A DNA stretch of 64,000 nucleotides from Candidatus Kerfeldbacteria bacterium (GCA_903825245.1 CAIJZX010000012.1:76059-140058), one strand, 5' to 3'. Shown: positions 17,056-34,344, numbered from the stretch's first letter. Program-made: numbers and translations. Notes: generated by a model not told the origin, from the sequence alone.

Positions 17056-17074
17056 CACCAACAACGTTACCAAG

Positions 17075-17099: not shown

Positions 17100-17117
17100 A
17101 TCCAGACGATAACACTC

Positions 17118-17146: not shown

Positions 17147-17187
17147 CTACTAGTACTACGTATAACTATCTAGTTATCCACAACCCC

Positions 17188-17517: not shown

Positions 17518-17851
17518 ATTCCTCAAGAAAATCATCGGCGATAAACAGGCGTGGAAAAAGTTAGAGGCGCGATCGAAAGCACTGCCGAACGACTATCAGA
17601 TCGTGTATAACGAAATAAAAAGCTACATGTTTAACCTGTGGCGGTTCGAGACCTCGGCCGGTAACGAAGCGGAAAGCATGGCCGTGTTAGAAGATTTACT
17701 CAACCTCTTCGAGGCGGGCGCTGGATCAGGAAAGACAGTGCTCGAGGTCACAGGCAAAGACGTCGCGGCGTTCTGCGATGATCTGTTTCACGCCACGGAA
17801 TCTTGGCGCAAGAAGCTCAACGCGAGTATTGCGAGAAAGTTGGGGCAGTAG
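17510..17851 (+). CDS. DUF1048-like protein (PadR partner)
   Basis: The 113 aa gene overlaps the padR stop; this pairing is typical. Confidence 0.55.
   Translation: MHKFLKKIIGDKQAWKKLEARSKALPNDYQIVYNEIKSYMFNLWRFETSAGNEAESMAVLEDLLNLFEAGAGSGKTVLEVTGKDVAAFCDDLFHATESWRKKLNASIARKLGQ
17744..17851 (+). repeat. direct repeat copy 1 (3' end of the DUF1048 gene)
   Basis: These 107 bp are about 92% identical to 18684-18791. Confidence 0.7.
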
Positions 17852-17988
17852 CTGGAACGTGTGAGTTCTCGACACAGACCTACGAGCAGAAGAATATAAC
17901 CTATTCTATTACAGATTTCTCAAAAAACTGCTTGACATATACAAAGCCACAAACCATACTAGTAGAAGTATTCGATAATAAAACACTT

Positions 17989-18657
17989 ATGACAATAAAA
18001 CTTCCTGGTAATACCAATATCCCAGAGACCTACATCTGGCGACTTTCAGAACACAAAGCACCAAGCGGATGCACCTGGCGCGGGAAATCACTTATTTGGT
18101 CATTTGATCGAAGTAATCCAGCGAATGCCATCCTCAAAGCACGGGGTGGCCGAACTATCGCGCTCCGATGTTTGTGGATGGCAACCGCCACTATTATTGA
18201 CTCTTCTCGATTACTTATTCAAACGACGGTACCTACCGGCACTGATCTTCTCCTTGTTGATTTTCGTTCCCCGGTTGTGAAGAAAAGCAGACTCCACCTC
18301 CCCCATCAAACGTCGGGTACGCTTGCAATCCCATCAATCCCACCAGCGTTCCAAGCACTCGCGGAAGGTGGGCTCGACGAAATAGTCTTCTTTGAAGACC
18401 GTTCAAAGGATGTCGGCCAGGCCACTCTCCATATCGTCAATCTGTCCCAGAAACGTGATCAGATAATACCGCAAACGTGGTATCCAAAAATCAAGAATTT
18501 TGATCCTGGGTATACCTACCTCGTTGATGCGATTCGTTCAAAATCAGGTGGTTCGATTTTTGGCTGGGGTGCCCGACTTGGGTTCTTCCAACTTACCGCC
18601 AACGGACGTACACTGTCTAAATGGATTGTCCGCGATCCGTTTTATCTCATGCGGTAG
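17989..18657 (+). CDS. hypothetical protein carried on an approximately 830 bp insertion
   Basis: It lies in the AT-rich segment between the two 107-bp repeats. The ORF-track start at 17803 reads through from the DUF1048 gene in another frame; the first internal ATG is at 17989. Confidence 0.35.
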   Translation: MTIKLPGNTNIPETYIWRLSEHKAPSGCTWRGKSLIWSFDRSNPANAILKARGGRTIALRCLWMATATIIDSSRLLIQTTVPTGTDLLLVDFRSPVVKKSRLHLPHQTSGTLAIPSIPPAFQALAEGGLDEIVFFEDRSKDVGQATLHIVNLSQKRDQIIPQTWYPKIKNFDPGYTYLVDAIRSKSGGSIFGWGARLGFFQLTANGRTLSKWIVRDPFYLMR

Positions 18658-18683
18658 ATTCGTAATTGCACTAAAACGCCCTA

Positions 18684-18791
18684 GAGGTCACGGGCAAAGA
18701 CGTCGCGGCGTTCTGCGATGATCTCTTCCACGCTACGGAATCTTGGCGCAAGAAGCTCAACGCGAATATTGCGAGGAAGTTGGGGAATTAA
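18684..18791 (+). pseudogene. duplicated 3' fragment of the DUF1048 gene (direct repeat copy 2)
   Basis: It encodes ...EVTGKDVAAFCDDLFHATESWRKKLNANIARKLGN* with no start codon or 5' part. Confidence 0.5.
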
Positions 18792-18812
18792 GACGACGGT
18801 ATAGTCGGTAAG

Positions 18813-19820
18813 CTAGTGATGACCCGGCCATATCGTCCAGAAAACCAAGACGATAGTCGAAACCGCTGCTAGAACCATGACAAAATTAAACCAAGTCCCC
18901 TGAAACCATCTCCTTGACTCTGTGTTTTCCTTTGCAAGGTGTAATACGGGGTGGTTGACGGTTCCAGTGCTTGCTTGTCCTACATTTCCATGAATGATTT
19001 GGACATTGGCTGCAGGAATAGGTATTTGAGTAACTGGTTTTGGTTGTGGCTGAATATCCCAGCACTCCTTGGTTTTGATTTCGGTACCAGTTGGGATTGA
19101 AGTAAATACATCATGATCCACAGATGTAACTTCTTCTTGCTTCCGACCCATTGCATCAAGAGTTGGAGGATTCGGAATATGCCGCTTTTCGTCTACCGGG
19201 GTTGTAAACCGAGCGAACACTGGAGCGTGTTTGCTAACATCTCTGATTAACGTTACGCTTGATACACTTTCAATGTTGTCTCCGGTTGGGTATTTAGCAA
19301 GCTCCGATTCACTTACCGGAGTAAATCTATCAAGGCGATAACCTAAAGCATTACGAGTTACACTATCCGGAATGTAGTATTTTTTATCTTTGAAAACTAC
19401 GAACTTTCGGTCGTTGACGTCTTGGATTAAGATCGCCTTACTCCATGCCCATTCAGAATCAAGTTGTTTTAATGTAAGTTCATAGGTTCGAGGGCTATTG
19501 TCAGTCCTAAACTTACGCTCGATTCTTCGTGATGGAAGACCCTTTTCAATTTCAATCCAAGACACTACCTGTGTAAGTTCTGTAAGTATATCCTCATCAA
19601 CTCGTTTTTTATTTGCGTCGTTACGAATCTGGTATCGAAGTAGGTCTTCAGAAATATCAACAAATATGTGCGTCACATCACCTGCGCTCCTCTGCGTCAC
19701 TTTAACAACCATTAGAGCCAAATCGTTGAATGGCCCCTCATACTGAAGTGGACTTATTTGAAGATCAAAAAGTCGTCCCTGTCTGTCCTGATATTCGGTT
19801 TGTATCGTTTGGCGTGGCAT
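18813..19820 (-). CDS. hypothetical protein with a C-terminal TM anchor
   Basis: The 335 aa protein is AT-rich and has no recognised domain. Confidence 0.4.
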   Translation of the reverse strand: MPRQTIQTEYQDRQGRLFDLQISPLQYEGPFNDLALMVVKVTQRSAGDVTHIFVDISEDLLRYQIRNDANKKRVDEDILTELTQVVSWIEIEKGLPSRRIERKFRTDNSPRTYELTLKQLDSEWAWSKAILIQDVNDRKFVVFKDKKYYIPDSVTRNALGYRLDRFTPVSESELAKYPTGDNIESVSSVTLIRDVSKHAPVFARFTTPVDEKRHIPNPPTLDAMGRKQEEVTSVDHDVFTSIPTGTEIKTKECWDIQPQPKPVTQIPIPAANVQIIHGNVGQASTGTVNHPVLHLAKENTESRRWFQGTWFNFVMVLAAVSTIVLVFWTIWPGHH

Positions 19821-19898
19821 AGAAAATAAACGCCTATAGTTTACGCCTGTCCGTTTCCCCTGTCTACAGCCCGCCGACGATTGACGAAATCCCCGATT

Positions 19899-20483
19899 TT
19901 ACGAAGTTAGGAGAGCGAGAAGAGCGTAGGCGCCAATTCCTAACAATACAGTCGGAAGGAGCACGGCAAAAGAACGGCGGCGATCTTTCCAAGAGCGGGG
20001 TAGAAAAATCACCATGATAATTCCGATCAGAATAGAAACCCAACCTGCTGGCTTATCCTGGATTTTAACCAGTTCATACCAACCTTCCGCGATAAAAACA
20101 CCACCCATCAGGGCTGAGCCGATAGCGGTGCGCCAGGAATTAGCCGCATGTCGCCACCAGTAACCGGACAAGCCGAATACAGGTCCACCAACCAAGGCAA
20201 CTGAACTCCACAATGCTATGGCAGAAAATCGATATGTGTACCCGAGAACGGCAGCAACAATTGTATAGCTTAGCAGTGCCAAAACGAGGCTGAGGAATCC
20301 CCCGACCATTGCCCATGTAGTCGATCGCATCAACGCTCCGACCACAAAGGCGGCAACTAGCCAGACCGCACCAGAGTTCGCGAAATGATTCCAGCTTCCC
20401 GGCAATGCTCCTTGCCCAAGAACCGTTAACGCCCCGCAGGCCAATCCGACGCCGATCATCAAGAATATGCTTTTTCGATTCAT
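19899..20483 (-). CDS. polytopic membrane protein
   Basis: Hydrophobic helices are present. The likely start (MNRKSIF) is at 20483. Confidence 0.4.
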   Translation of the reverse strand: MNRKSIFLMIGVGLACGALTVLGQGALPGSWNHFANSGAVWLVAAFVVGALMRSTTWAMVGGFLSLVLALLSYTIVAAVLGYTYRFSAIALWSSVALVGGPVFGLSGYWWRHAANSWRTAIGSALMGGVFIAEGWYELVKIQDKPAGWVSILIGIIMVIFLPRSWKDRRRSFAVLLPTVLLGIGAYALLALLTS

Positions 20484-20540
20484 GGCTTCAAGTATAGGTT
20501 GTATTCCTTCTGAATGGAAGGAGCACATTTAATAAAATGA

Positions 20541-20569
20541 TTGACATAATGCCTTATTTTCGCTACTAT
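20541..20569 (+). promoter_or_regulatory. sigma70-like promoter for tRNA-Lys
   Basis: TTGACA is separated by 17 nt from TACTAT and ends 17 nt before the tRNA 5' end. Confidence 0.45.
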
Positions 20570-20586
20570 TTGCACGCTATCTTTTT

Positions 20587-20661
20587 GGGTTCCTAGCTCA
20601 ATGGTAGAGCAACGGCCTTTTAAGCCGTGGGTTCTGGGTTCGAGTCCCAGGGGACCCACCA
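20587..20661 (+). tRNA. tRNA-Lys (anticodon UUU), CCA encoded
   Basis: The 7-bp acceptor stem is gggttcc/gggaccc, the D-arm gctc-aatggta-gagc, the anticodon stem acggc/gccgt with loop cTTTTaa, and the T-arm ctggg-ttcgagt-cccag. Confidence 0.85.
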
Positions 20662-22418
20662 GCCAACAATTTGCGCCCCGAACTCATCCCGGCGATATGC
20701 CCAAGGATGTCTTGGGGCAACTTCAATTTAATACGTATTTCATAGGGTAAAAGTTGTTTTTCCTTACGTCGTCCGGCAATGCTGTCTTCCGCAGTGGAAG
20801 GACGGGAATATATAATGATCTCCTCGATCAGGGCATGAAGAAGCTGGTCGAGCTCCCGGCGGTCGCCAAAAATATCATTAAGTGCCTCCGAGTACTTTTT
20901 ATTGAACACATTAAGGCTAGAAATGTAGCTATCTGGCATTGCGTTTTTTGAAATGAGTAGGTCTAGCTTTTCCAATTCAGCTGTTAGTAGCACAATCTGC
21001 TTCTCCAACTTCTCCATTTCCTCTTTAAGCTTCGGCTGTTTGATATAACCAAGCTTATGCTGTTCCAAGATATTGTTTTTCCTCGCTGGCATTGCATCAA
21101 GCAACTGTCGCAACTGCTCTCTTTTCTTGGCGAAGTGTTTCTTTTCCGATTGTGTAGATTTTAGTTTTTGTTGGTACTTGAATACAGCCTCTGGGTTTTG
21201 TAAAAACTCTTTTGTCTTAGTAACTACATATCGTTCTATTTCTTCGGCTGGCAATGGAATTGTAAAACAATTTATTTCGTATTTGCTCGTATTTTTTCGA
21301 GCACACTTGTAGTAATAGGCAAAATTATCAGGCGCTGTTGTAAGCTTCTTTCGTTCCCCAATCCACCGATACATTGTAGGATCAGCGTCCGGCTTGAAAC
21401 ATGCATCACATTTAAGTAATCCTCTTAATAAATATATGTGTCCTTCTCGGGGCTCATCAATGATGTTTTTTGTCTGGGCAAGTATGTTTTGGGCTTTTTC
21501 AAAAGTCCCTACATCAATGATCTGTGGCAATGCATAGGGTGAAATACTCCACTTAGAAGGTTCTACCCGCTTACCGTCTCTTGTTTTACCAAAGTAGTAT
21601 TTACCAATGTATATGGGGTCTTTTAATATCTCTCTTACAATTTCCATTCGCCAAAAGTTCGGCGAACTCTTCTTTCTTATTGCCCCTTTATATTCTTTAT
21701 ACAAGACTGATGATGTTTCAGGTGAAGGCCGCTCCTCCTCCGTGAGTATCTTCGCGATCCGCTGTGCGGAAAGTTTTTGTGAAACGCACATGTCGAAAAT
21801 TGATCTGATAACTTCGGCTTCGGCTTCGAAGATGACCAACCTCTTTTCACTGTCTTTAATGAAGCCGTATTTCATGCCCGATCCCATGACAACTCCGTTC
21901 TTAATCGCTTGTTCCCGTCCGGCTTGTGTTCTTTGCTTGATCGTCTCAACTTCTAATTCAGCGATGACACCAATGATGTTCAAAATCGCCTTTCCAAAAG
22001 GTGTAGACGTGTCTATGCTCTCTGTTGCCGACAAGAATTGAACGTCGTATTCACCGAAAAAGTCGATAACTTCTAAGAGGATTTTTAATCGACGTGCGAA
22101 ACGATCAATTTTGTATACCGCAACTGCGTCGAAAGGCCTGTCTTCGGGTGTAGAGTTTGTGAGATCCTCTTGAAGTTTCGCAAAAGCAGGTCTCTCTGGA
22201 AGATCAACGGTACCGCTAATCCCTTCATCAAAATAAATATACTGATCCCCAGCGAGAACCATTGCATCAAGCCCATTATCGAGTTTTCCTCGGGCTTTTA
22301 TCAAGCCTAGTAACGCTTCTTGTTGGAGCTTTTTTCCGTACCTCTCAACCTGCTCATCAGTCGAAACCCGCAGGTAGAGAGCGACGCGGAGAGACGATTG
22401 TTGTTGGTTTCCGATCAT
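20598..22418 (-). CDS. large serine recombinase (integrase)
   Basis: The N-terminal resolvase catalytic domain (LRVALYLRVSTDEQ) is followed by a recombinase domain, a CxxC zinc ribbon and a coiled coil. The last roughly 64 nt of the ORF overlap the tRNA on the opposite strand. Confidence 0.85.
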   Translation of the reverse strand: MIGNQQQSSLRVALYLRVSTDEQVERYGKKLQQEALLGLIKARGKLDNGLDAMVLAGDQYIYFDEGISGTVDLPERPAFAKLQEDLTNSTPEDRPFDAVAVYKIDRFARRLKILLEVIDFFGEYDVQFLSATESIDTSTPFGKAILNIIGVIAELEVETIKQRTQAGREQAIKNGVVMGSGMKYGFIKDSEKRLVIFEAEAEVIRSIFDMCVSQKLSAQRIAKILTEEERPSPETSSVLYKEYKGAIRKKSSPNFWRMEIVREILKDPIYIGKYYFGKTRDGKRVEPSKWSISPYALPQIIDVGTFEKAQNILAQTKNIIDEPREGHIYLLRGLLKCDACFKPDADPTMYRWIGERKKLTTAPDNFAYYYKCARKNTSKYEINCFTIPLPAEEIERYVVTKTKEFLQNPEAVFKYQQKLKSTQSEKKHFAKKREQLRQLLDAMPARKNNILEQHKLGYIKQPKLKEEMEKLEKQIVLLTAELEKLDLLISKNAMPDSYISSLNVFNKKYSEALNDIFGDRRELDQLLHALIEEIIIYSRPSTAEDSIAGRRKEKQLLPYEIRIKLKLPQDILGHIAGMSSGRKLLAGGSPGTRTQNPRLKRPLLYH

Positions 22419-22743
22419 AGGACAAGAGAGGTAACTAGCCCAGAACTATGCAAACATGATTATCATACTCGTTTTATTGCTATAAAGCCATAATTGCTAA
22501 CCCGAGGTAATTAAACTATAATTCAATCTGTTTCCGAGGCCTAGATGCTCATTTCTACAATTTACTTAGCCTAAACTTCGGCCTATGGCCGGGGCACGGC
22601 GATCAAACCAAGAGAGGCGAACAGCTCCTAGTCAGAGCACCTCTCTTGGTCGTGCGTGGAAACGCGCACGGGTGGCCGTAAGGTCATCGCTGGCTAGGGG
22701 CTTTGTGTTTGTACAAACCCGCCGCCAGATATTTACAAAATAT

Positions 22744-22971
22744 ATGGCACAGGCAAAAACTGTTGGAATTATGAGCTTGGTTATTCTCGGCACATTGTTG
22801 CTTGGGACTACTTTTTGGTGGTTTCAGCTACGCCCATTTTCTGACCATAGGGCATGCGCGAAATATACTACTACCCAAGCAGAAAAGATGGATTTTGACC
22901 TCCATACGCCCATTTACTTTCCCGGTTATGGTGTGGTTTATGACATGTGCTTACATGGTAAGGGCTATTAA
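22744..22971 (+). CDS. small membrane-anchored protein (island cargo)
   Basis: The internal Met MAQAKTVGIMSLVILGTLLL gives a TM anchor. The 12-bp palindrome GTTTGTACAAAC lies just upstream. Confidence 0.35.
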   Translation: MAQAKTVGIMSLVILGTLLLGTTFWWFQLRPFSDHRACAKYTTTQAEKMDFDLHTPIYFPGYGVVYDMCLHGKGY

Positions 22972-22974
22972 CGT

Positions 22975-23835
22975 ATGCAAATACTTCTCTGGTTGGCTTA
23001 CGCCGTTGTCGGTATATTCGTGATAGTGTTTCTCGCTGGTGGAGTTACTGCCGCTGTAAAGAATTCAGGAAAAAGAAGGCGTCTCCATTCTATAGGGGCA
23101 GTAGCACAAATTCCTGCTGATTTAAGGATAATCATGCGTGAGATTTATACTGCACATAAAAAACAAGACGTTGCACTCGTAAACTCGGTTACCGTTTCCA
23201 CTGGCATCGTGCAACTAAATAAAATTCTAGAATTGATGAAGCCAGAAAACCGACTCAAATACCTATCAGCAGGTATGCAGGGCGATGTGACTGCTTTTAC
23301 GGCAATGGAGAACGAGCTAGTATCAAGAAACTACAAGGTCAATGCGGCAAAGATTGTTACTGGTATTATCCTGAATGATCTCGATGATCCGCTTTTGAAA
23401 ATGAAAGGGCAGGAGACAGCCCCACCTTCCCCAAGTGCTAAGAGTAAAATCCTTCTCTTTGAAGATGACAAGATATTACGAACTTTGTATGAAGCAAAAT
23501 ATCATCAACAAGGGTTTGACGTTGCTGGGTATGACAATCCAACCAGCGACCCGGTGAGCGTTGTTTTGAGAGAAAAGCCTGATGTGATTTCAATGGATAT
23601 TGTCATGCCAATTATGGACGGGTTTACTGCAACCGAGTTGCTGAAAACCGATGCGCGAACAAAAGGTATTCCCATTGTTATTTTTACTAACCATGCACAG
23701 CATAAGGACATTGATCGTGGCAAGGCATTGGGTGCGGCGGATTACCTGATCAAAGCACATTTTACGCCTGATGAGGTGGTGGATCGTTTTCGGCGGGTTC
23801 TCAATTTAAATGACGTAGCAAATCGTAAACTTTGA
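22975..23835 (+). CDS. membrane-anchored protein with a C-terminal response-regulator receiver (REC) domain
   Basis: An N-terminal TM helix is present. The C-terminus (KILLFEDD......ISMDIVMP..DG......K) matches the CheY-like receiver pattern. No output domain was recognised. Confidence 0.55.
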   Translation: MQILLWLAYAVVGIFVIVFLAGGVTAAVKNSGKRRRLHSIGAVAQIPADLRIIMREIYTAHKKQDVALVNSVTVSTGIVQLNKILELMKPENRLKYLSAGMQGDVTAFTAMENELVSRNYKVNAAKIVTGIILNDLDDPLLKMKGQETAPPSPSAKSKILLFEDDKILRTLYEAKYHQQGFDVAGYDNPTSDPVSVVLREKPDVISMDIVMPIMDGFTATELLKTDARTKGIPIVIFTNHAQHKDIDRGKALGAADYLIKAHFTPDEVVDRFRRVLNLNDVANRKL

Positions 23836-23856
23836 AGCCGCTAATCGATTATACCT

Positions 23857-24855
23857 ATGAGCCACTTCACTCCTCAAACTAGAGCACTCTCGATCCTCAC
23901 TTTAATCACGGGGTTATTACTACTTGGCGCATCTTGCTCAAATAAAAGAGCGATAGATACGAACACAACTAACTCAAAGGTTACAGAAACCAACAATGCA
24001 GTATTGGCCAATATAAACACCACATATTCTAACCAGAATACTTCGGTTGTTGTAAATAACTCGGTAAATCCATCATCCAACTCGAATCAATCTATTACAA
24101 ACGGAAAAGTTGTTGTACAACCAAAAAACACGAATACGGAGAAAAAAGTATTAAATACCAACACGGCTCCAAAAGTGTTGAGCACCAACACTAACGTGGA
24201 TGTCCCACCAGCTACAACACCTGCGCCCACAGCGCGGCTAACAGCATCAACAGATTGCCCAGTTTTGCAACCGGCGGTGCTGACTTGGAATACAACCGGC
24301 GCTCAAACCGTCACATTAGAATCCTCAACGGGTGGGGATCGCCAGACGATAGACATACAAAATGCGGCTACGGGAAACGTAACTATAAATTCTCAAAAAA
24401 CCACGAGCTATTATCTAACTGCAACAAATCAAAGTGGACAGAAAGCAACGGCGCAGGTTCGGCTAGATCGCCCAAACGTAGACCCTAACTATCCGATTAT
24501 CACCGGCTACGCCGATACTTTGGGCGTGGTTTCTCATTCATCAAGCTATAACGGGTATGGCTGTGGTGGTAAGGGTCAGCCGATTGCACACATCGGCGAC
24601 ACCATAACGTTAACTGTTGACGCGTATGATCCGAATGGCGATCCGTTGGTATACAGATTCAGCTCAGTGTTTCCATCAGCCATGGGTGTAACCAGTGGTT
24701 GGACAAGCAGTAGCACCTATACGTGGACATTCACTTCTGCTGATGTGGGGTCGATGAGATGCGTCTATATTTCCGTAAAAGATAATGACGGGTATGACCG
24801 AATTGCTGATTATGACGATACAAGCCCTGCTTGCTATGATATTGCACACCCATAG
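23857..24855 (+). CDS. secreted Asn/Thr/Ser-rich protein with a C-terminal beta-rich domain
   Basis: A signal peptide is followed by an N/T/S low-complexity region. The C-terminal 150 aa are of normal complexity. Confidence 0.45.
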   Translation: MSHFTPQTRALSILTLITGLLLLGASCSNKRAIDTNTTNSKVTETNNAVLANINTTYSNQNTSVVVNNSVNPSSNSNQSITNGKVVVQPKNTNTEKKVLNTNTAPKVLSTNTNVDVPPATTPAPTARLTASTDCPVLQPAVLTWNTTGAQTVTLESSTGGDRQTIDIQNAATGNVTINSQKTTSYYLTATNQSGQKATAQVRLDRPNVDPNYPIITGYADTLGVVSHSSSYNGYGCGGKGQPIAHIGDTITLTVDAYDPNGDPLVYRFSSVFPSAMGVTSGWTSSSTYTWTFTSADVGSMRCVYISVKDNDGYDRIADYDDTSPACYDIAHP

Positions 24856-24903
24856 TTACGTTAACAGCGCAGTAAGTAATCAACAATGATTAGCTAAAAC
24901 ATT

Positions 24904-25161
24904 ATGCCGAGATTAAATTCAAGTGACAACGAGGACGAGATGAGTTCAAGGTTACGGCAAGGGGTTCTTGCTACTGTATTGACTTTGTCGCTTATCGGAT
25001 TAGGCGCGGCTGTTTTCGACGTTCACCATGTCTGGTGGGAAAATGATACGGTACAGGGAATACAGATGCTCTCATTGATTGGTGTGTTCTACTGCCTATT
25101 GGCAACATTGCTCAAAATTCTTAATAAAAAGAAACTATCCGAGGATAACTCCGAGGATTAG
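24904..25161 (+). CDS. small membrane protein
   Basis: The 85 aa protein has two hydrophobic helices. Confidence 0.3.
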   Translation: MPRLNSSDNEDEMSSRLRQGVLATVLTLSLIGLGAAVFDVHHVWWENDTVQGIQMLSLIGVFYCLLATLLKILNKKKLSEDNSED

Positions 25162-25435
25162 CCCTTCCTGGTAATTTACTACTTAATTAACGAATCTTTC
25201 TTTGGCCGTATTTGTCAATACGTCGATAGATTTTTTAGTAACTTCCGGCGCACTTGTGCTGGCGTTTTTTTCTTTGTTGAAATGAGGGTGATCAATCGCT
25301 TTTTCATATAATTGAGTATACCATCCGCCCTTATCTTTCCAAGGGTACTCTTTGAATCAAGATAGCAAAAATTAGGAGGATGTGGTTTTATGGACTATAA
25401 TTGAGTAGTTAAACCGTGCAATCTCGTTATTGGCA

Positions 25436-28400
25436 ATGATCCTAAGTGCAGCATTAGACCGAATAAACGACCCCGAAGTGTCCTTATTTGTTTTGTTATT
25501 GCTTATTATGGTAGGAATCATCTACCTTTCCCGATGGATAGTTCAAAAGATCAAGGAGAGTGGAAATACAATTTCGGCAAAGACGAACAAAGAATACAAG
25601 AATCTATGTAAAAAAAGAGAGTTTTTTTGGCACAGGCTATTTAGGGATTTTTACGCCCCCTCAGTACGCTCTTCAATTGCAATGGGTGTAATCGCATTTG
25701 GAATATATGCGTTGTCACACTTTATCCAAACAAAGAGCCAAACCCTTTCTTTTGTTAATGGCAGTCACTACCAAAACTTGATCGCAATTTACTCTGGTAT
25801 CGCCGGCATTATCTTTGCACTTATAATCTTTGTCGCTGAAAGCTTGCGCGATGAGCAATCACGCGATCAAGCACGCGTAATACTTCGAACGACTTACCTA
25901 TACCCACTGGTGGTTCTTGCTGTTCTAAACTATAGCGTTTACGCATGGGGAGACGTCAATTCTCTTGGCGTAGTCCCCGTTTTATTTCTTGGAGCATTTT
26001 CTATTTTTTCACTTTTCCGTCTATTTAGAATACTCTTAGATAGGAGTGAAAACTTTAACCAAAAAATTAAGTTGCTAACCGATCGTTTGAGGCTAAGTAT
26101 TGATGGCGCTATTCGTCAGCGACTGGGTAATGTGATTTTATTTAAATGGCTTACTGATTATAAAATACCGATTTCCTTCTACCCGTTTACTACGGAGGGC
26201 TCAGCATACTACAATTTTACTTCAAAAAAATCGGGAATTGTTGCAGACATCGATCTGGGAAAACTCGAAGACTTTGCCAAAATGGTTGAAGAGGCGGCAA
26301 ACAAGAATGATTTTAGTTTTTTTGGCAGAGAAGGAAAGGCGCTATCGATCAATACATCGACGGATACGACGGAACCAAGTGAGGGCAGCACTAGAACGTA
26401 TTCAAAGAATGATCACGTATATTTTGGCAAGCTATACAGAGACGAGGTCAAGCTTGACGACGTGCTTCTTTCTGTTAAAAAAGACATCATCGGCGATCAA
26501 AAGAAGGTGCTAGATAAGCTCAATGCCACTTTTAAAAAAATCTACGTAGTAAAAAAAGAAGAGCACGGTATTTCCGAACAAAACCGACTAGAGCTTTCCG
26601 CACAGAAAGACCAATTTATAGCCGCTGTAAAAGCGGGAAGTATGGGAAAGATAAGAGAGGGCTCGGCAATATATTTAAGCCTTGCAGAGACTTTTCTAAA
26701 AGCCCTCAATGAATGTGGCGGGGGTTATAGTTTTGATCAAGCTCGCCGCGAAATGGGTTCGATAATTAGCCGTTGGAATGAAGCGGATTGGCTTCAAGAG
26801 GATATTAGCGAAATACATAGAGCAGCACTAGACACGCATGATCAAAACGTGATTGATGAAATTGCCTTTTTGCCTATGAAGATCGTGAGTCTAGCCATAG
26901 AATCACGAGACCATTTTATTTTTCAGACCTTCATTCAGTTTCAATTGAGGTTGTATCTCGGATCACTGCGCGAGAATGATACCGATTTAAAGAGGCATTT
27001 GCTTGATCGTTCATGGCGATATTTAAAAGAATCTGCTGATTTTTGGGTCGAGCACGAAATAACAAAGGAAGATAATGAGAAAGATATTCCTAGGTTGAAG
27101 GATTTTGCTATATACTACTTTTCTGTATTTCAGACCATACTGCGGGAAGCCGTAATAAAAAAGGACAAAGATGGGTTTGAGCTCTTCGCAGTTGCCCTTT
27201 CAGGCTTGTTTGATTCTTTCAAATATACCCTTGAAGATGAGCGCACTCGGCAACCAGTGGCTGATGCTATTAAGGAAATTTGGTTAAATAAAGACCAGAT
27301 GATATTTGGCCTAACGAGCTGGATTTTTTCAGAATATAAAAAGAATCCAAACAATGAGACAACAAAAAGTTCATACGGAAAAATTCAGTCCCTAATAAAA
27401 AACAATATAGTTGATTTAACGTCTACCTTTCTATCAGTTCATGACTTTAAAGTAGGTGATTTCTGGGGATGGGATCGTTGGGATATGATTGCCGATGGTC
27501 AGGTGCATACTATCGATGTTAGCGGGAAAATAGAAAGATATTTTATTGTTCGCGGGTTGAAGATACTAGCCACAATGACTGACGATAACATTCGAGCCAT
27601 AGAACTACCGACGAACCGAAATATGGCATTTCAGGCTGATAGCGGTGGCGGCTTGCTTATGGTATTGGAGCAAATTCAAAACAATCAAAGTGATTGGGAT
27701 GCGCACCTTACCCCGGTTGAAATTGGGAAAATTGATCTTTTTAAGGCACTTCTCCAAAAGGCGAAGGCGAAACAAGAATCAGACGAGCAAGAACAGGTAA
27801 AGGCTAGTCCAATCAGCGAAAAGAAGAGGAAAGAATTCATTCAGGAGTTTCTTGAAGGCTATCGTCAGTCGAGTTATTTCCGTCATATCGTGAAGCACTA
27901 TGGCAATTTGGTCGAAAAACCAAATGATCAAATTTCAGAAAACAGACTGGGCGTGAATATGGTGGAAGATAAGCAAGTCTTCTTTGAGCACTGGCACGTG
28001 CACTACTCCAAATGGGGTAACCAGTTTGGGCACGACATGGCCAGAGCCGAAAATGACAGCATACTTTCTAAGGTCGTTAGTTTTAGTGCAACTCTAAACG
28101 AGACGGACTTAGATCAAGTTATTGAAAGATTTACAGAAAAGAACGACATCATCATTATCGCTTTAAACCAAGCGATATTTGGATTCTTCCATCAATCAAA
28201 CAAATTTGAATATAAACGTTTTGATGATCCTGAAAAAATACCATCATACAGTCAGGAGGGGTGGTGGAAGATTGATCAAAACCTCCGTATCCCAGTTTTT
28301 GAAATCCATGACCGTAATCAGAACAACGCCATCCTAGTTTTAAACAAGAAAAAAATGGGTCGATTAGAACAATACTCGCCATTGCGTGATGCAGAACTGC

Positions 28401-28636
28401 CTAGTGACCAAGTTGAACATTTCTATTTTTCCATTAAAGCTTTCTCAGAGAATCCTGATTTGATGACAAAGATCATATCCAATCCGCCTGCTTGGTTAAC
28501 GGAGAAGGGAAATGAAGAACAACAAAAAGATCACCTCAAAGGAAAGGTGTGGATGAAAATATATGAGTCCTATGCCTATAACAAGGGTGATGATTTTGAG
28601 GGGTATATTTTCCCAGTTGCTAACCCGCTAGTCTAG
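25436..28636 (+). CDS. large (about 1066 aa) polytopic membrane protein with a big soluble domain, unknown function
   Basis: Five to six N-terminal TM helices (first about 210 aa) are followed by about 850 aa of soluble sequence. No Walker or other recognisable motif was seen. The ATG at 25436 is preferred over the TTG at 25430. Confidence 0.55.
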   Translation: MILSAALDRINDPEVSLFVLLLLIMVGIIYLSRWIVQKIKESGNTISAKTNKEYKNLCKKREFFWHRLFRDFYAPSVRSSIAMGVIAFGIYALSHFIQTKSQTLSFVNGSHYQNLIAIYSGIAGIIFALIIFVAESLRDEQSRDQARVILRTTYLYPLVVLAVLNYSVYAWGDVNSLGVVPVLFLGAFSIFSLFRLFRILLDRSENFNQKIKLLTDRLRLSIDGAIRQRLGNVILFKWLTDYKIPISFYPFTTEGSAYYNFTSKKSGIVADIDLGKLEDFAKMVEEAANKNDFSFFGREGKALSINTSTDTTEPSEGSTRTYSKNDHVYFGKLYRDEVKLDDVLLSVKKDIIGDQKKVLDKLNATFKKIYVVKKEEHGISEQNRLELSAQKDQFIAAVKAGSMGKIREGSAIYLSLAETFLKALNECGGGYSFDQARREMGSIISRWNEADWLQEDISEIHRAALDTHDQNVIDEIAFLPMKIVSLAIESRDHFIFQTFIQFQLRLYLGSLRENDTDLKRHLLDRSWRYLKESADFWVEHEITKEDNEKDIPRLKDFAIYYFSVFQTILREAVIKKDKDGFELFAVALSGLFDSFKYTLEDERTRQPVADAIKEIWLNKDQMIFGLTSWIFSEYKKNPNNETTKSSYGKIQSLIKNNIVDLTSTFLSVHDFKVGDFWGWDRWDMIADGQVHTIDVSGKIERYFIVRGLKILATMTDDNIRAIELPTNRNMAFQADSGGGLLMVLEQIQNNQSDWDAHLTPVEIGKIDLFKALLQKAKAKQESDEQEQVKASPISEKKRKEFIQEFLEGYRQSSYFRHIVKHYGNLVEKPNDQISENRLGVNMVEDKQVFFEHWHVHYSKWGNQFGHDMARAENDSILSKVVSFSATLNETDLDQVIERFTEKNDIIIIALNQAIFGFFHQSNKFEYKRFDDPEKIPSYSQEGWWKIDQNLRIPVFEIHDRNQNNAILVLNKKKMGRLEQYSPLRDAELPSDQVEHFYFSIKAFSENPDLMTKIISNPPAWLTEKGNEEQQKDHLKGKVWMKIYESYAYNKGDDFEGYIFPVANPLV

Positions 28637-28707
28637 TTAGCTTTATCCGGCCAACATCAAAGTAAAATCGGACTTTTCATTTTGTTTTTTGGTGCTATGG
28701 TTAATTT

Positions 28708-29127
28708 ATGGCTACCAGTAAACAAATCAAAACGGCAAGAATTATGTCCGAAAATGTCCGAAAATCGGTGTCCGCCGCCATGCGCGACGCTGGTTATTCA
28801 AATCGCTCGGCCGAGAAACCACAGCGGCTCACTCGGAGCAAGGGTTGGCAGGACTTGATGGATGAACACTTGCCTGATAAAACACTGCTAGGCGTCCATA
28901 AAGGCCTGTTACGAGACCCTGATTGGCGGGCGCGGGATTCTGGTCTAGATATGGCTTATAAACTCAAAGGCTCCTACAAAGCCACCAAGGTAAGTGTAGA
29001 GGATTCACTTGAACACTTGTCAGACGATGAGCTTGATGTGTTACTAGCCGAGCAGAAGCCAGCTATTGAACGGTATCAGCAATACAAAAGAACAAGACGT
29101 CATCCCGCTGCGCAACCGATTAAGTAA
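28708..29127 (+). CDS. terminase-small-subunit-like (Terminase_2-like) DNA-binding protein, tentative
   Basis: The N-terminus (MATSKQIKTA....AAMRDAGYSNRSAEK...LTRSK) resembles the TerS N-terminal HTH pattern KQ......A...AGYS..TA. The resemblance is at motif level only. Confidence 0.4.
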   Translation: MATSKQIKTARIMSENVRKSVSAAMRDAGYSNRSAEKPQRLTRSKGWQDLMDEHLPDKTLLGVHKGLLRDPDWRARDSGLDMAYKLKGSYKATKVSVEDSLEHLSDDELDVLLAEQKPAIERYQQYKRTRRHPAAQPIK

Positions 29128-29135
29128 ACGATTGA

Positions 29136-29318
29136 ATGACCATGTTGACCGACAAACAGATCGAGGAGTTTCAGGCGCTTTATAAAAAGAATTTTGGGAC
29201 TGATATTAGCCGAGAGGAGGTGCTAGAGTCGGCTATTCGGCTCATTAACCTGATCAAAGTGGTATACAAACCGATGACAAAAGAAGAGTACAAGAGGTAC
29301 TCCGACGATCTGAGATAA
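29136..29318 (+). CDS. small hypothetical protein
   Basis: It is 60 aa long. Confidence 0.3.
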   Translation: MTMLTDKQIEEFQALYKKNFGTDISREEVLESAIRLINLIKVVYKPMTKEEYKRYSDDLR

Positions 29319-29328
29319 ACTAGATGCC

Positions 29329-29589
29329 CTACTTTTTTCTTTTTCTTACGGCACTAAATAACTTGTGAAGTAGCTGATCGTCGTCACTTGCAGTTGAAGA
29401 TATAGCCACATTGATCTTAGTGCCTGCGTGTAGGCCGGTTCTTACGACTGGGGCGTTGTCCGTAGATAAATGTTGTTTTACCCGACCAGTATGATCCCAA
29501 GCGGTTGCAATAAGGGAATCACCAATGCCAAGTTTATCGGTTTTAGCTCTTGGTTTGATTAGCCTTTTGATTGATTGAGGTAACTTCAT
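29329..29589 (-). CDS. hypothetical basic protein
   Basis: It is 86 aa long. Confidence 0.3.
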   Translation of the reverse strand: MKLPQSIKRLIKPRAKTDKLGIGDSLIATAWDHTGRVKQHLSTDNAPVVRTGLHAGTKINVAISSTASDDDQLLHKLFSAVRKRKK

Positions 29590-29721
29590 GTATATACCTA
29601 TTAGCTTGTCGTAGGGGGCTTTTACGGGCTCCTAGACGCTTAATGTGGCGGTCTAAGCCCACGCAGAGTATAACAAAGTTTAGCCCTTTTGGTATAATTG
29701 AGTTCGGGGTAGAATGTGTTG

Positions 29722-29991
29722 TCCCACCAAAAACTAGCTATTACCAGACATCTGTATCGAAGATACGGAGTGTTTGGATATGAAAAATTGGGACGAGAAG
29801 GGCCGAGCACTTGCGCCGGTGGCGCGAGAGCGCAGGCCCCGGCTCGACGAAGTGCCGTTGCCGGGAACCCCGCAGGGTCGGCAACAAGCTTCGGCGAGGA
29901 GTCCCAGGGGACCCACCAAAAACTAGCAATTACCAGACATCTGTATCGAAGATACGGAGTGTTTGGATATGAAAATTGGGACGAGAAGGGC
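29722..29991 (+). repeat. two approximately 80-bp direct repeats (29722-29802 and 29912-29991) flanking a GC-rich approximately 110 bp insert that ends in the tRNA 3' fragment
   Basis: CCCACCAAAAACTAGC[T/A]ATTACCAGACATCTGTATCGAAGATACGGAGTGTTTGGATATGAAAA(A)TTGGGACGAGAAGGGC occurs twice. The first copy begins with a truncated gtcccacca. Confidence 0.55.
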
Positions 29992-30004
29992 TGTTTTGGG
30001 TTGC

Positions 30005-30661
30005 CTACGCCGCGTATTTGATGATGGCGAAGTAGTGCAGGACGGTTCCGGCGATCACGAAGATGTGCCAGATGAAATGCGCGTACGGCAGGCGTTTCGC
30101 GTTAAAGAAGGCAATCCCGCCGATATAGGCGACTCCCCCGGCGCCGAGCCAAGCGAGTACCCACGGCGACGCTTGCACCCACAGTGGCCGAGCCGCAATC
30201 ATAATCAGCAAACCCATGCCGACGTAGAGCATGTTCGAGAGATGACGATTCGAGAGTTTTCCTAAAGATTTCAGAACGATACCGCCGGCCGCGAGGATCC
30301 AGATCGCCCCGAACAACGGCCAACCCCAGGCGCCGCGCAAAACGCCAAGCGTGAACGGTGTGTACGTTCCGGCGATCAGCAGATAAATGCCGCTGTGATC
30401 AAGGACGCGAAAGACTTTCCGCGCTCGCGGATGTGGAATAGCGTGATACAACGTCGAACCGAGATATAAGAGTGAGGCACAGCCGATGAAGATGCTCACG
30501 CCAACAATATCCCAGGTGGTGCCGTGGTGAATCGCATGGAGAATCAAAAACGGTGCACCGACAATCACCGCGACAACGCCGAGGCCGTGGGAAATGCTGT
30601 TGGCGATTTCTTCGCCAATTGTTGGCTGGCGTTCACCTGGCCGCTCTTTGTCACTTTCCAT
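30005..30661 (-). CDS. hemolysin III / PAQR-family channel protein
   Basis: The protein has seven TM helices and HxxxH-type motifs (HAIHHG, HFIWH). The likely start (MESDKERP) is at 30661. Confidence 0.7.
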   Translation of the reverse strand: MESDKERPGERQPTIGEEIANSISHGLGVVAVIVGAPFLILHAIHHGTTWDIVGVSIFIGCASLLYLGSTLYHAIPHPRARKVFRVLDHSGIYLLIAGTYTPFTLGVLRGAWGWPLFGAIWILAAGGIVLKSLGKLSNRHLSNMLYVGMGLLIMIAARPLWVQASPWVLAWLGAGGVAYIGGIAFFNAKRLPYAHFIWHIFVIAGTVLHYFAIIKYAA

Positions 30662-30803
30662 AGATGTTGATTGGAACCAAATAGTGAACACTCTTGAACC
30701 TGCACCGTAACACAAGGAGGCTGAAAAATCAATGAAAAATGCTTGACGACACGGTGTATATAGCCTACGCTTGATGTAACACCAATTACCAGTCAACACG
30801 TCT

Positions 30804-31730
30804 ATGGACAATCCACCCCTCGTTCCGCCGCAACAGCCGCCACACCACGTGTCTGTCGGTAAGGCTATCGTCAAAGCTCTTGGATTTGGTTTGCTCCTAG
30901 CCATACCAATGACCTATATATTTACTTTGGGTATTGGAACTGTTATAAGCTATTTCCGACTGAGCTATCACTGGGGACTTGGTGGAATTTTTGTTGGCCT
31001 AGCAATCATCATCTACGCCTTTATCGTGAATGCGATCATCATGGTTTTGGCGACCTTTATCACCCTCGAACGATCATCGCGACCGTACGTGCACGCCATT
31101 TTGATTGGCCTACTCATCAACGTCATCGCTGTCGCCGGAGGCTGGGGGTATAATTTGTACACGCACCAAGGTCAACTTACACAACTCGCTGTCGATCGTA
31201 ACAACGACAAATATGTTGATGCAAAAAAATTGAGTGATTGTGCTAAGCTAACAGAAGTGAACGCTTGGACAATTTGTATCAAAGATAAGATCATTGACAC
31301 CACTACGTTAGCGACCTGCAAAACGCAAGCTGCACGATACGGTGGTTCGAATAGTGAAGCTGCATTAACCTGTCAGGATCGCTTCATTATCAATACCGGC
31401 GCTATAGCCCAATGCAACGATTTGCCGCTTGTTGGATCCGACCCAAACAGCCAACGGTATTGCCTGCTCGACACCATTGAGAAATCCTGGGAAAAGAATA
31501 ATCGAAAAACTCCGGCATCAATCGTGGCCGGATGCTCTGGAATGGCCAATGCCGCGGAAAAACAATTCTGCTATGTCGCTTCCCTTCGGCAGTTATCCAA
31601 AGGTGATGCCGCAGCCGCGGCCGCTTGCCAAGGTATCAATCCTGCTGTCTGGTTTGGTATTGTGAATAATGCCAATAATGATTTGACCAACATTCAAACC
31701 ATTTGCGGAATTACGATCACCGCGTCGTAA
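30804..31730 (+). CDS. membrane protein with a Cys-rich extracytoplasmic domain
   Basis: Three to four TM helices are followed by about 180 aa containing many Cys residues. Confidence 0.45.
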   Translation: MDNPPLVPPQQPPHHVSVGKAIVKALGFGLLLAIPMTYIFTLGIGTVISYFRLSYHWGLGGIFVGLAIIIYAFIVNAIIMVLATFITLERSSRPYVHAILIGLLINVIAVAGGWGYNLYTHQGQLTQLAVDRNNDKYVDAKKLSDCAKLTEVNAWTICIKDKIIDTTTLATCKTQAARYGGSNSEAALTCQDRFIINTGAIAQCNDLPLVGSDPNSQRYCLLDTIEKSWEKNNRKTPASIVAGCSGMANAAEKQFCYVASLRQLSKGDAAAAAACQGINPAVWFGIVNNANNDLTNIQTICGITITAS

Positions 31731-31850
31731 TAACTCTTTTTTGTTTTTTTAGTCATTATGAAACATGCCTGTACTGGACATGTTCTATCTTGACTTCCGA
31801 AAAAATATATGATAAGACCGTACTAAATGTAGCTCCTTTTACCCGCGGAG

Positions 31851-32174
31851 ATGCCCATGAGCACTTCATCTGCTCCGACGACAATCATCACCGTTGTGGA
31901 ACAAGAGGGCAAGCGTCTCTTTCGCTTTCCCGACGGCACCGAAAGCGAAGCGTTGGCGGCACACCCATACGCAGGCCAGTGCTTGACAGTTCTTCGGGAA
32001 GGATTGGCCCTTGCCCGGACACGAGAAATTGCCATTGACGGCAACCATGGTGCCTGTACGTGTTTCTGCGGCCTGCCGTGGCCATTCGGATTCGAATCGC
32101 GCGTTCCCAGTAGTCACCTCGTCGCTAGTTGGTTTGTTATCGGCGATGAGCTCCGTATCAGCGATACTGCATAG
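31851..32174 (+). CDS. hypothetical protein (GC-rich patch)
   Basis: GGAG lies 5 nt upstream of the ATG. The ORF ends inside the plus-oriented terminator hairpin. A competing minus-strand ORF at 31866-32216 exists. Confidence 0.3.
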   Translation: MPMSTSSAPTTIITVVEQEGKRLFRFPDGTESEALAAHPYAGQCLTVLREGLALARTREIAIDGNHGACTCFCGLPWPFGFESRVPSSHLVASWFVIGDELRISDTA

Positions 32175-32192
32175 CACACTATGCAGTTTTTT
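32167..32192 (+). terminator. rho-independent terminator
   Basis: CTGCATAG-caca-CTATGCAG is followed by TTTTTT. Confidence 0.5.
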
Positions 32193-32718
32193 ATTTCTTT
32201 CCTTGAGCTCTCTCAATGAGCTTGTAGAAAACTTCCCGCGTCGTAATCACATCAATCAACGCGCGGTGCGCGCTCGGTTGCGGAATTTTGAGGTAGGCGG
32301 CGACGTTCGATAAACGGTAACTTGCGAGCAACAAATAGCGCTTAGCGATTTCCAGTGTGTCGATGTACTGATTTGGTAGCGGCTCTTTGCCGAGGCGCTT
32401 TAGGTGTTCGTTGATAAAACCAAGATCGAAGGTGACGTTGTGGCCGATAATCACACAGTCGCCGACAAAGGCGATGAGCTCAGGTATAACATCTGCCACG
32501 TCTTTCCCTTCGGCATCGATGTCAGCCTGGGTGATGCCATGGATTTTCGTGGCTTCGGCCGGAATCGGTTTTGTGGTTTTTAACAGCGACACAAACTCCC
32601 CGACGACATCGCGGCCATGGATCTTTTGGGCGGCAATTTCAATAACCTCGTCGCCGGCAGACGCATTGAGGCCGGTTGTTTCCACGTCGAGGACGACGAA
32701 ATCGAGGGGCAATGGCAT
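32191..32718 (-). CDS. DnaQ-like 3'-5' exonuclease (DEDDh)
   Basis: VVLDVETTGL, H..FD..F and H.AL.D motifs are present. Confidence 0.75.
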   Translation of the reverse strand: MPLPLDFVVLDVETTGLNASAGDEVIEIAAQKIHGRDVVGEFVSLLKTTKPIPAEATKIHGITQADIDAEGKDVADVIPELIAFVGDCVIIGHNVTFDLGFINEHLKRLGKEPLPNQYIDTLEIAKRYLLLASYRLSNVAAYLKIPQPSAHRALIDVITTREVFYKLIERAQGKK

Positions 32719-32837
32719 AGAACCACAGTATACGGAATATCTGCCCAGTCTTCAAGACTGTGGATGAATTCGGTGGACAAGATGGTATCAACAGCCGTTG
32801 CAGGTAATGCCCTCCTCAGGTACACTACTTGAGCTAT

Positions 32838-32917
32838 GTCCCGTTAGAAACTCCTTGGGACAAGCCTTAATTTCAACTATGGTTTTCGAACTCATTATAG
32901 GAAGTTTCTAACGGGAC
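32838..32917 (+). promoter_or_regulatory. 15-bp perfect inverted repeat (GTCCCGTTAGAAACT ... AGTTTCTAACGGGAC) in the dnaB 5' leader
   Basis: The arms lie at 32838-32852 and 32903-32917. The right arm ends 1 nt before the dnaB ATG, and the loop is 50 nt. Confidence 0.4.
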
Positions 32918-32918
32918 T

Positions 32919-34289
32919 ATGGCCATTACTTCTGAACTCCGCATACCACCCCAGCAACTCGAGGCTGAACAGGCCGTCTTAGGGTCAATGCTGATTGACC
33001 GCGATGCAGTTATTCGAATTGCTGATACGCTGATTCCGGAGGATATGTATGCCGATAAGCATCGTTTCATCTACGATGCCATGTTGACGTTGTACCAACG
33101 CCACGACCCAATCGACATTGTCGCCCTCTCAAACCTTCTCGAAGAGCGCAAACAATTGGACACCGTGGGCGGACGAAGCTTCCTGGTATCGTTGTCGAAC
33201 GCAGTTCCGACCGCCGCTAATATCGTTCAGTACGCCCAAATTGTTCAAAAGAAAGCTACACTCCGGCGTTTACTCGACGCGGCTGGAACGATGCTCCAGC
33301 TCGGGTATGAAGAAACCGAGGATGTTTCTGCTTTGCTCGATAAAGCCGAACAATCAATCTTCAACGTTTCGCAACGCTACCTTCGCCAGAATTTCATTAA
33401 CATTCGCGACGTCCTCGATCAAGCTTTCGACCGTATCGACCAGCTCCACCATGATTCGGGACAATTGCGTGGCGTACCGACCGGCTTTACGAAACTCGAC
33501 TCACTTCTCGGTGGTCTGCAAAAATCCGACCTTATTATTCTTGCCGCTCGTCCATCTGTTGGTAAGACATCATTAGCGCTTGATATCGGACGCAACGTCG
33601 CGGTCAAAACGAAACAACCGGTCGGCATCTTCAGCTTAGAAATGTCCAAGGAACAACTCGTTGATCGTTTGCTCGTGGCACAAGCCGACGTCGATTTGTG
33701 GAAAATGCGCACCGGTCGTTTGAAAGACGATGAAGACTTTCAACGCATCGGCCATGCCATGGGCATGCTCGCGGAAGCACCGATTTTCATTGACGATAGC
33801 GCTAGCGCGAATATCATGGAACTCCGCACTAAGGCACGACGATTGCAAGCCGAACACAAAGGTCTCGGATTGATCATCATCGACTACCTCCAACTGATGG
33901 AGAGCCGGACGGGCGAAAACCGCACGCAGGAAATTTCGGAAATTACTCGCGGCTTGAAATCAATTGCTCGCGAATTGAACGTGCCAGTGCTCGCGCTTTC
34001 GCAGTTGTCCCGCGCCGTCGAACTCGAGCGGCCGCCGATCCCGAAACTCGCCCACCTTCGCGAATCCGGTTCAATCGAACAGGACGCCGACGTGGTCATG
34101 TTTATCTACCGTCCGGCCGTCTATGACCGCGATATCGAGGAAGATAAGAAGAACTTAGCTGAAATTATTGTCGCCAAACATCGTAACGGTCCAACCGGCC
34201 GCGTGAACCTCTCTTTCGTCGACCGACGAGCTTCCTTCGATAACCGCGAAGAACGCCCGGGCGAAACCGAGTTTTCGAGCGAGGGATAA
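32919..34289 (+). CDS. dnaB: replicative DNA helicase DnaB
   Basis: The N-terminal IPPQQLEAEQAVLGSMLID is followed by Walker A (ARPSVGKTS) and the rest of the DnaB C-terminal domain. Confidence 0.9.
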   Translation: MAITSELRIPPQQLEAEQAVLGSMLIDRDAVIRIADTLIPEDMYADKHRFIYDAMLTLYQRHDPIDIVALSNLLEERKQLDTVGGRSFLVSLSNAVPTAANIVQYAQIVQKKATLRRLLDAAGTMLQLGYEETEDVSALLDKAEQSIFNVSQRYLRQNFINIRDVLDQAFDRIDQLHHDSGQLRGVPTGFTKLDSLLGGLQKSDLIILAARPSVGKTSLALDIGRNVAVKTKQPVGIFSLEMSKEQLVDRLLVAQADVDLWKMRTGRLKDDEDFQRIGHAMGMLAEAPIFIDDSASANIMELRTKARRLQAEHKGLGLIIIDYLQLMESRTGENRTQEISEITRGLKSIARELNVPVLALSQLSRAVELERPPIPKLAHLRESGSIEQDADVVMFIYRPAVYDRDIEEDKKNLAEIIVAKHRNGPTGRVNLSFVDRRASFDNREERPGETEFSSEG

Positions 34290-34329: not shown

Positions 34330-34344
34330 GAAATTGTAATGCAG

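Follow-up and report, generated by a model that had tools for sequence, protein, structure and literature searches.

The known large serine recombinase (LSR) integrases (phiC31, Bxb1, A118/LI, TP901-1 and the Ccr enzymes of SCCmec) have in common an architecture of resolvase, recombinase and zinc-ribbon domains, and they use a pseudo-palindromic attP of ~50–56 bp, with very short attB/attP identity and with distal motifs that are shifted inward in attB (PMC3783163). In the structural model of serine integrases the zinc-ribbon motif is placed at positions 16–24 of the attP half-sites and ~5 bp further inward in attB (PMC3783163). Here we describe an LSR-encoding island next to the tRNA-Lys(UUU) gene in a 64,000-nt stretch of DNA from a Candidatus Kerfeldbacteria bacterium (GCA_903825245.1 CAIJZX010000012.1:76059-140058; this whole stretch is called the window, and positions are counted from its first letter). 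The architecture, the form of attP, the short identity and the inward shift recur in this island, but unlike the known systems it targets a tRNA 3' end, with the T-loop apparently serving as the attB motif, the recombinase gene overlaps attP in its stop region, and its hosts are bacteria of the candidate phyla radiation (CPR). We propose that positions 20662–29722 are an integrative island inserted by the LSR into the very 3' end of tRNA-Lys(UUU), a reading to which we assign a probability of roughly 0.8. As a genuine LSR element it belongs to a familiar class. Its novelty lies in the tRNA 3' ends that serve as targets across the whole family, in attP arms resembling the T-loop, in the CPR hosts and in the association with the structured RNA known as LOOT.

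Islands inserted by tyrosine integrases resemble this one in their position at a tRNA 3' end, the functional tRNA, the lower GC content and the integrase gene beside the tRNA. The enzyme here is in contrast a serine recombinase, the shared core measures 3–11 bp rather than 15–25 nt or more, and the long 20-nt repeat of the window is best assigned to another insert and not to the island boundary.

Phage satellites are the third relevant group. They carry defence genes, and the Vibrio PLE elements combine a serine recombinase with a directionality factor encoded by the helper phage. The island resembles satellites (phage-inducible chromosomal islands, PICIs, capsid-forming PICIs and PLE) in the 4–10 kb size, the integrase at one end, the small-terminase-like gene, the lack of an obvious directionality factor in this copy and, in its relatives, the defence cargo. 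It differs in that no replication module or helper was identified here and in that most family members are without the terminase-like gene. Our literature search on serine recombinases in CPR/Patescibacteria in connection with tRNA returned no relevant report, and the main text of the largest recombinase survey that we consulted does not mention tRNA (PMC10083194).

The recombinase gene and the attachment sites

The features at the two ends of the island are as follows:

20587–20661, plus strand: tRNA-Lys(UUU), found by both ARAGORN and Rfam (72.9 bits); B arm of attL
20598–22418, minus strand: LSR gene, 606 aa, 1821 nt including the stop codon
20655–20661: attL core CCCACCA, which falls at the centre of the 34-bp spacer once attP is rebuilt
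20662–20686: P' arm of attP, within the 3'-terminal part of the recombinase coding sequence, with CCCCGAAC at 20676–20683
29699–29722: P arm of attP, with GTTCGGGG at 29702–29709
29723–29729: attR core CCCACCA, at the right junction of the recombinase island
29730–29789, plus strand: native tRNA-downstream spacer A1 with a hairpin, B' arm of attR, collinear with the tRNA-Lys 3' flanks of the related loci L003 and L005

The original prediction of a site-specifically integrated element at the tRNA-Lys 3' end holds; the large serine recombinase is intact and the element is absent from the syntenic site in L003. The 1821-nt recombinase gene does abut the tRNA with a 64-nt antisense overlap, and the interior is AT-richer than its surroundings as proposed, with a GC content of 0.423 for 20662–29722 vs 0.491 in both flanks. 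The LSR matches the Pfam families Resolvase (PF00239, 1.9e-30, residues 12–176, covering the whole profile) and Recombinase (PF07508, 1.9e-19) as well as the phage integrase family phrog_95 (4.7e-96). Zn_ribbon_recom (PF13408) scores 5e-4 and 20.7 bits, under the Pfam cut-off of 25.3 bits, yet despite this sub-threshold score the cysteines C337, C340, C372 and C384 are invariant in an alignment of 29 sequences. R17, S19 and Q23 are invariant in the same alignment, and the window protein keeps every residue that is invariant across the 29 homologues. It is the sole recombinase in the island, with no tyrosine recombinase gene beside the tRNA. Its stop codon lies within the antisense strand of the tRNA, and in an excised circle the reading frame would be extended from 606 to 647 aa.

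An imperfect inverted repeat (20664–20686 vs 29699–29721), overlooked in the original prediction, abuts CCCACCA at both island ends. These 7 bp are the only identity with the tRNA end at the right junction. Joining 29699–29729 to 20662–20686 rebuilds an attP of ~56 bp, in which an inverted motif, contributed once by each island end, is arranged as GTTCGGGG, 34 bp and CCCCGAAC. Besides these two copies, at 20676 and 29702, the range 15000–35000 contains a single further match to the motif, a chance occurrence in the hemolysin-III gene. The junctions predicted for the window are ...GGGGACCCA/CCAAAAACTAGCTATTACC in attB and ...GAGTTCGGGGTAGAATGTGTTGTCCCA/CCAGCCAACAATTTGCGCCCCGAACTC in attP. Because the inverted motif is family-wide and its 34-bp spacing invariant, as detailed below, the right junction is placed at 29722/29723 and not at 29918, which gives a predicted island of ~9.06 kb (20662–29722). 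The tRNA is left intact by the integration, with sequence and score identical to those of tRNA-Lys in L001, L004 and L005.

A family of recombinases at tRNA 3' ends

More than 400 proteins are homologous to the LSR over their full length at E < 1e-20, with 45–56% identity, and the few source names among them are all of CPR groups (Levybacteria, Parcubacteria, Minisyncoccia). Genomic contexts were obtained for five of them by exact-protein look-up and for 80 further loci from metagenomes. The 3' end of the recombinase gene meets the 3' end of a tRNA gene on the opposite strand in 64 of the 80 metagenome loci, and 15 of the remaining 16 loci lie on contigs that stop ≤226 nt from the recombinase match. 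Counted by distinct LSR genes, 63 of 78 abut such a tRNA, with 17 isoacceptors represented. To call a serine recombinase at a tRNA "less usual", as the original prediction did, is an understatement: members of this family target tRNAs as a rule.

The family motif GTTCGGGG sits just inside the island at a fixed distance from the tRNA end, 22 nt if CCA is encoded and 24 nt if it is not, and its inverse, CCCCGAAC, marks the opposite end of the islands. Joining both ends yields a constant 34-bp spacing, with junctions that agree at its centre. This two-end arrangement is present in 28 loci vs ~4 expected by chance and delimits islands of 4–10.4 kb, in which the core identity between the ends is 3–11 bp. 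Throughout the family the P' arm lies within the recombinase coding sequence. In the arm consensus, with positions counted from the centre, GTTCG occupies 25–21 in the P arm as well as in the P' arm, and 21–17 in the tRNA arm. The window island belongs to a large and apparently undescribed family of tRNA-targeting LSR islands in CPR bacteria.

Proposed mechanism of integration

Strand exchange would take place at the discriminator/CCA position within the 7-bp identity CCCACCA, so that the tRNA would stay intact. We infer that the crossover dinucleotide is AC, that is, the discriminator A and the first C of CCA (20658–20659); the T-loop GTTCG of tRNA-Lys then lies 17–21 bp from the crossover. 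The zinc-ribbon domain of the LSR would read GTTCG(G/A), which is located 21–25 bp from the centre on both attP arms, and in attB the same motif would be supplied by the universal tRNA T-loop (GGTTCGA), 4 bp nearer to the centre. This inward shift is consistent with the attB/attP zinc-ribbon-motif model (PMC3783163), and use of the T-loop as the attB motif would explain how relatives hit at least 17 tRNA species. The cargo is transcribed away from the recombinase, with LOOT RNA coming first and the genes for membrane or secreted proteins following.

Empty sites in relatives and a separate mini-insert

The related Kerfeldbacteria locus L003 carries the genes found downstream of the island in the window, at 69–82% amino-acid identity, and its tRNA-Lys region is collinear with the window minus 20662–29729. 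An empty tRNA-Lys site, which the original prediction expected to lead directly into the downstream gene, is therefore found there in so far as the island is missing, but the tRNA is followed by the spacer hairpin, by an additional segment that we call X and by a copy of the 20-nt repeat. L005 represents the simplest state, with the tRNA and spacer followed directly by a gene. The relatives and the window together thus cover three situations: the site may be bare, it may hold X, or, as in the window, it may hold both X and the recombinase island. Exact-protein look-ups with the window recombinase and its DUF6518 neighbour returned no record, and therefore no strain-level empty site was obtained.

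The segment beyond the right junction is organised as follows, and inserts of the same type are listed with it:

29790–29918, plus strand: mini-insert X, outside the recombinase island, ending in the 20-nt tRNA-end copy at 29899–29918
29919–29994, plus strand: second spacer copy A2 and the first 14 nt of X, direct repeats
L003 3422–3555, L004 7170–7559 and L007 near 1170–1340: X-type inserts
L093 tRNA-Leu (4486–4571), L093 tRNA-Lys (11792–11866) and L125 tRNA-Glu (5780–5854): tRNA genes with X-type inserts downstream

The 20-nt repeat GAGTCCCAGGGGACCCACCA is as exact as originally claimed, with exactly two copies (20642–20661 and 29899–29918) and with no match in shuffled sequences even at 2 mismatches. 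Its use as the att boundary does not stand, as the junction lies 189 bp upstream and the copy occurs also ~190 bp downstream of tRNA-Lys in L003, which is island-free. Across all loci, 8 of 167 tRNAs are followed downstream by another exact copy of their 3'-terminal 16 nt; four of these copies come after small inserts without a recombinase island (L003, L004, L093 tRNA-Leu and L125 tRNA-Glu), and the other four are found on the far side of a recombinase island (the window, L007, L093 tRNA-Lys and L098). Since the copies follow small inserts with or without an island, the 20-nt repeat is most plausibly the trace of a distinct family of mini-inserts directed at tRNA ends. These inserts are 110–390 nt long, are located downstream of CPR tRNA genes and each end in an exact copy of the last 16–21 nt of the tRNA; two of them, at different tRNAs of one contig, have a common core sequence.

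The core of X (29806–29898) is GC-rich (0.72). X folds alike in the window and in L003, into a three-way structure with z-scores of -3.9 and -4.75; 49 of 50 nucleotides are identical in the 5' half, while the sequence of the 3' hairpin differs with the pairing kept. Rfam contains no family for X, and a 16-mer from X gave only 44 chance hits in viral contigs. A tmRNA, a tRNA-like gene or a split tRNA were considered for X and rejected, as ARAGORN finds none and there is no 5' acceptor or T-stem partner. The original prediction also missed a longer direct repeat (29723–29803 vs 29912–29991, 80 nt, ~96% identical). This duplication of the spacer and 14 nt of X creates a second, unoccupied attB-like site at 29899–29940, 189 bp downstream of attR, and a weaker version of the spacer duplication is present in L007.

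A promoter-like site with an extended -10 (TG) is found at the right island end (29670–29698, plus strand), directed outward across attR toward X. The L004 insert carries an 80-aa GIY-YIG open reading frame (ORF). Small GIY-YIG ORFs were also noted between adjacent tRNA genes in L012 (11812–12126) and L013 (11344–11622), with none in the close relatives L011 and L014, and this presence/absence polymorphism adjoins the target tRNA of the recombinase.

LOOT RNA inside the islands

A structured RNA that had been overlooked lies 150 nt upstream of the recombinase gene and is divergent from it:

22494–22522, plus strand: promoter-like site TTGCTA-17-TATAAT, ~45 nt upstream of LOOT, a consensus match only
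22565–22714, plus strand: LOOT RNA with a conserved 3' extension; the RF03000 match covers 22568–22688
L007 3462–3623, L008 3903–4050, L015 2139–2287 and L145 12518–12652: LOOT in related loci

The match reaches 79.1 bits against the Rfam cut-off of 46.4 and spans model positions 1–121, i.e. the full model. Beyond the Rfam model there is a conserved 3' extension of the form GCYGGC...GRGCTTTGTGTT, a pattern that has no match in viral contigs. Using a covariance model built from four island copies, LOOT was found in 31 sources (the window and 30 related loci), and relative to the recombinase gene all 31 hits fall on the island side and 0 on the host side (508 kb vs 378 kb searched); all ten weak hits are upheld by Rfam's own model. 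It is present in 13 of the 24 distinct islands with both ends defined. Among 26 distinct sequences 95.7% of the cells are paired and 34 of 40 pairs show compensatory changes, which none of 500 shuffles reached, in an alignment that was fitted to the model and so favours structure. In Rfam LOOT is a metagenome motif typed as an sRNA gene; the full-length structure is the same here, and the setting is inside serine-recombinase islands, upstream of membrane-type genes. We found no paper that sets LOOT in a recombinase or mobile-element context. Because in ~26 of 29 cases LOOT is followed after 5–55 nt by an ORF whose product has a hydrophobic N-terminal segment or a membrane segment, LOOT could be a 5' leader or attenuator, a reading that we hold with low confidence.

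In L145, a locus reached via a different protein, LOOT lies beside a different and more distant serine recombinase (15392–17083, 563 aa), which is accompanied by an HTH_17 gene and has no adjoining tRNA; therefore, not all LOOT-bearing recombinase islands target tRNAs. In addition to LOOT, the L145 island encodes a restriction-modification system of type III and one of the homologues of the 1068-aa protein described below. Another RNA, DUF3800-V (RF02964, 53 bits), was noted in L069 (3478–3575, plus strand), in host DNA ~2.4 kb outside a related island.

Cargo genes

The following genes lie downstream of LOOT in the island, and small-terminase-like genes of other loci are listed with them:

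22744–22971, plus strand: 75-aa protein with one hydrophobic segment, starting 29 nt past the extended LOOT match and 55 nt past the Rfam match
22975–23835, plus strand: 286-aa protein, hydrophobic near its N terminus and carrying a response-regulator receiver domain at the C-terminal end (PF00072, 1.1e-16)
23857–24855, plus strand: 332-aa protein in which a Cys comes after a hydrophobic N-terminal stretch, read by eye as signal/lipoprotein-like, no family match
24904–25161, plus strand: 85-aa ORF with a hydrophobic stretch, no family match
25430–28636, plus strand: 1068-aa orphan protein with a helical repeat and, at residues ~825–1060, a C-terminal predicted HK97-like (capsid/encapsulin) fold
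28708–29127, plus strand: 139-aa small-terminase-like protein, by homologue gene order and a weak profile match
L092 7952–8497 (minus strand), L101 6881–7426 (minus strand), L077, L082 and L112/L113: small-terminase-like genes elsewhere

Transcription away from the recombinase, as originally proposed, applies to the larger ORFs, which are all on the plus strand, and fails for one doubtful 86-aa ORF (29329–29589) on the minus strand. Pfam, PADLOC and PHROGs have nothing for most of the cargo ORFs; PADLOC recognises no defence system in any ORF of the window island, and a primase or replicase module has no Pfam, PHROG or PADLOC match among them. The cargo of the relatives is mostly defence, with type I and other restriction-modification, SLFN/AlbA_2, KAP NTPase, Vsr/Dcm and HNH genes.

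The 1068-aa protein has only 14 homologues, two of which adjoin restriction-modification genes (L143, L145), and a Foldseek search against the PDB gave only generic helical-repeat matches. Its N-terminal helices are likely to be in the membrane; a true capsid is unlikely, as these helices look membrane-spanning and homologues lie beside restriction-modification genes. A homologue of the 139-aa protein (P0155; 7001–7486 in the 41-kb phage-like contig L147) is encoded directly upstream of a large-terminase gene, with which it overlaps, whereas the match of the 139-aa protein to the DNA-binding domains of solved small terminases is weak and non-significant (E 0.6). At least five other islands have a small-terminase-like gene close to their far end. 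Two of these islands are minimal (4.2 kb and 5.3 kb), with genes for the recombinase and for one or two membrane or secreted proteins, LOOT, the terminase-like gene and little more.

Weighing of alternative readings

In the original prediction the island extends over 20662–29918, the 20-nt repeats are attL and attR, and X with the first spacer copy forms the right end. The repeat is indeed exact and far above chance, and L007, L093 and L098 also show a 16–21-nt tRNA-end copy beyond the island, which in L007 and L093, where the junction is defined, is found 130–170 nt past it. However, serine integrases need only a 2-bp crossover, a long identity is not expected of them, and the inverted motif with its 34-bp spacing sets the junction at 29722. 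Furthermore, L003 has the tRNA, spacer, X and 20-nt copy without an island, the inserts of L004, L093 (tRNA-Leu) and L125 (tRNA-Glu) come without a recombinase, and an exact 16-nt tRNA-end scan was negative at all other island-bearing tRNAs. We consider these wider boundaries very improbable. The copies beyond the islands in L007, L093 and L098 nevertheless count also against the boundaries that we prefer, and several further observations weigh against our reading. The host (B') arm beyond the island is unconserved, T-rich and has no motif; GTTCGGGG in the P' arm also encodes the conserved residues GSGQ, so its conservation may partly reflect coding; and the motif shift is 4 bp and not 5 bp as for the Listeria integrase. 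A same-species empty site or excised circle was not found, the recombinase being on a single contig in the protein collection, and no recombination directionality factor was recognised among the island ORFs.

The claim that the element would still be excisable is unproven, and the excisionase-like HTH_17 gene that adjoins the recombinase in ~30 related loci has no counterpart in the window island. This lack, together with the occurrence of the element on one contig only, would fit a relic that is fixed and no longer mobile, with a recombinase that was kept but is unable to excise. On the other hand, the LSR retains the full set of invariant residues, the att arms are preserved at either end, the tRNA sequence is unaltered and the GC content is still distinct from the flanks, and so we regard a relic as unlikely. 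An island inserted by the LSR, our preferred reading, could at the same time be a phage satellite (PICI- or Vibrio PLE-like), for which a helper phage supplies the directionality factor and the island's own small terminase aids packaging. The gene order of the 139-aa homologue in the phage-like contig, the small-terminase-like genes near the far end of other islands, minimal ones included, the absence of a directionality factor encoded in cis in this island, the predicted capsid-like fold of the 1068-aa protein and the defence cargo of the relatives, of a kind known from satellites, all point in this direction. Against it, no more than 6 of the 78 distinct elements have a terminase-like gene, solved small terminases give no significant profile match, no replication module was found among the island ORFs and no helper phage was identified. 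The elements are also absent from the viral contig collection, in which the recombinase protein has no match. We thus offer the satellite reading tentatively, as the less probable side of the question, though it appears to us a better candidate than the relic. A broader picture is possible at a similarly tentative level: a CPR-wide class of mobile islands, possibly phage satellites, whose LSRs would use the tRNA T-loop as a half-site and could hence enter almost any tRNA gene, with LOOT as the islands' regulatory RNA for membrane-protein cargo and with the capsid-fold and small-terminase-like proteins acting on a helper phage.

Implications for CPR bacteria and serine integrases

The window island leads to a clade of serine integrases that is large and coherent and whose target is predictable and almost universal, namely the 3' ends of tRNA genes, apparently read via the T-loop. 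This provides a testable model of attB choice by a serine integrase and a possible source of integrases with landing sites in tRNA genes. For annotation it carries a caution, in that an exact 20-nt repeat of a tRNA end is not always the boundary of the neighbouring island. For LOOT it provides a first genomic context of this structured RNA, inside islands and upstream of membrane-protein genes. CPR bacteria carry compact 4–10 kb islands that shuttle defence genes and sometimes a small-terminase-like gene. Mobile elements of the CPR are little described in the literature that we searched, and these islands are candidates for the first phage satellites of CPR bacteria.

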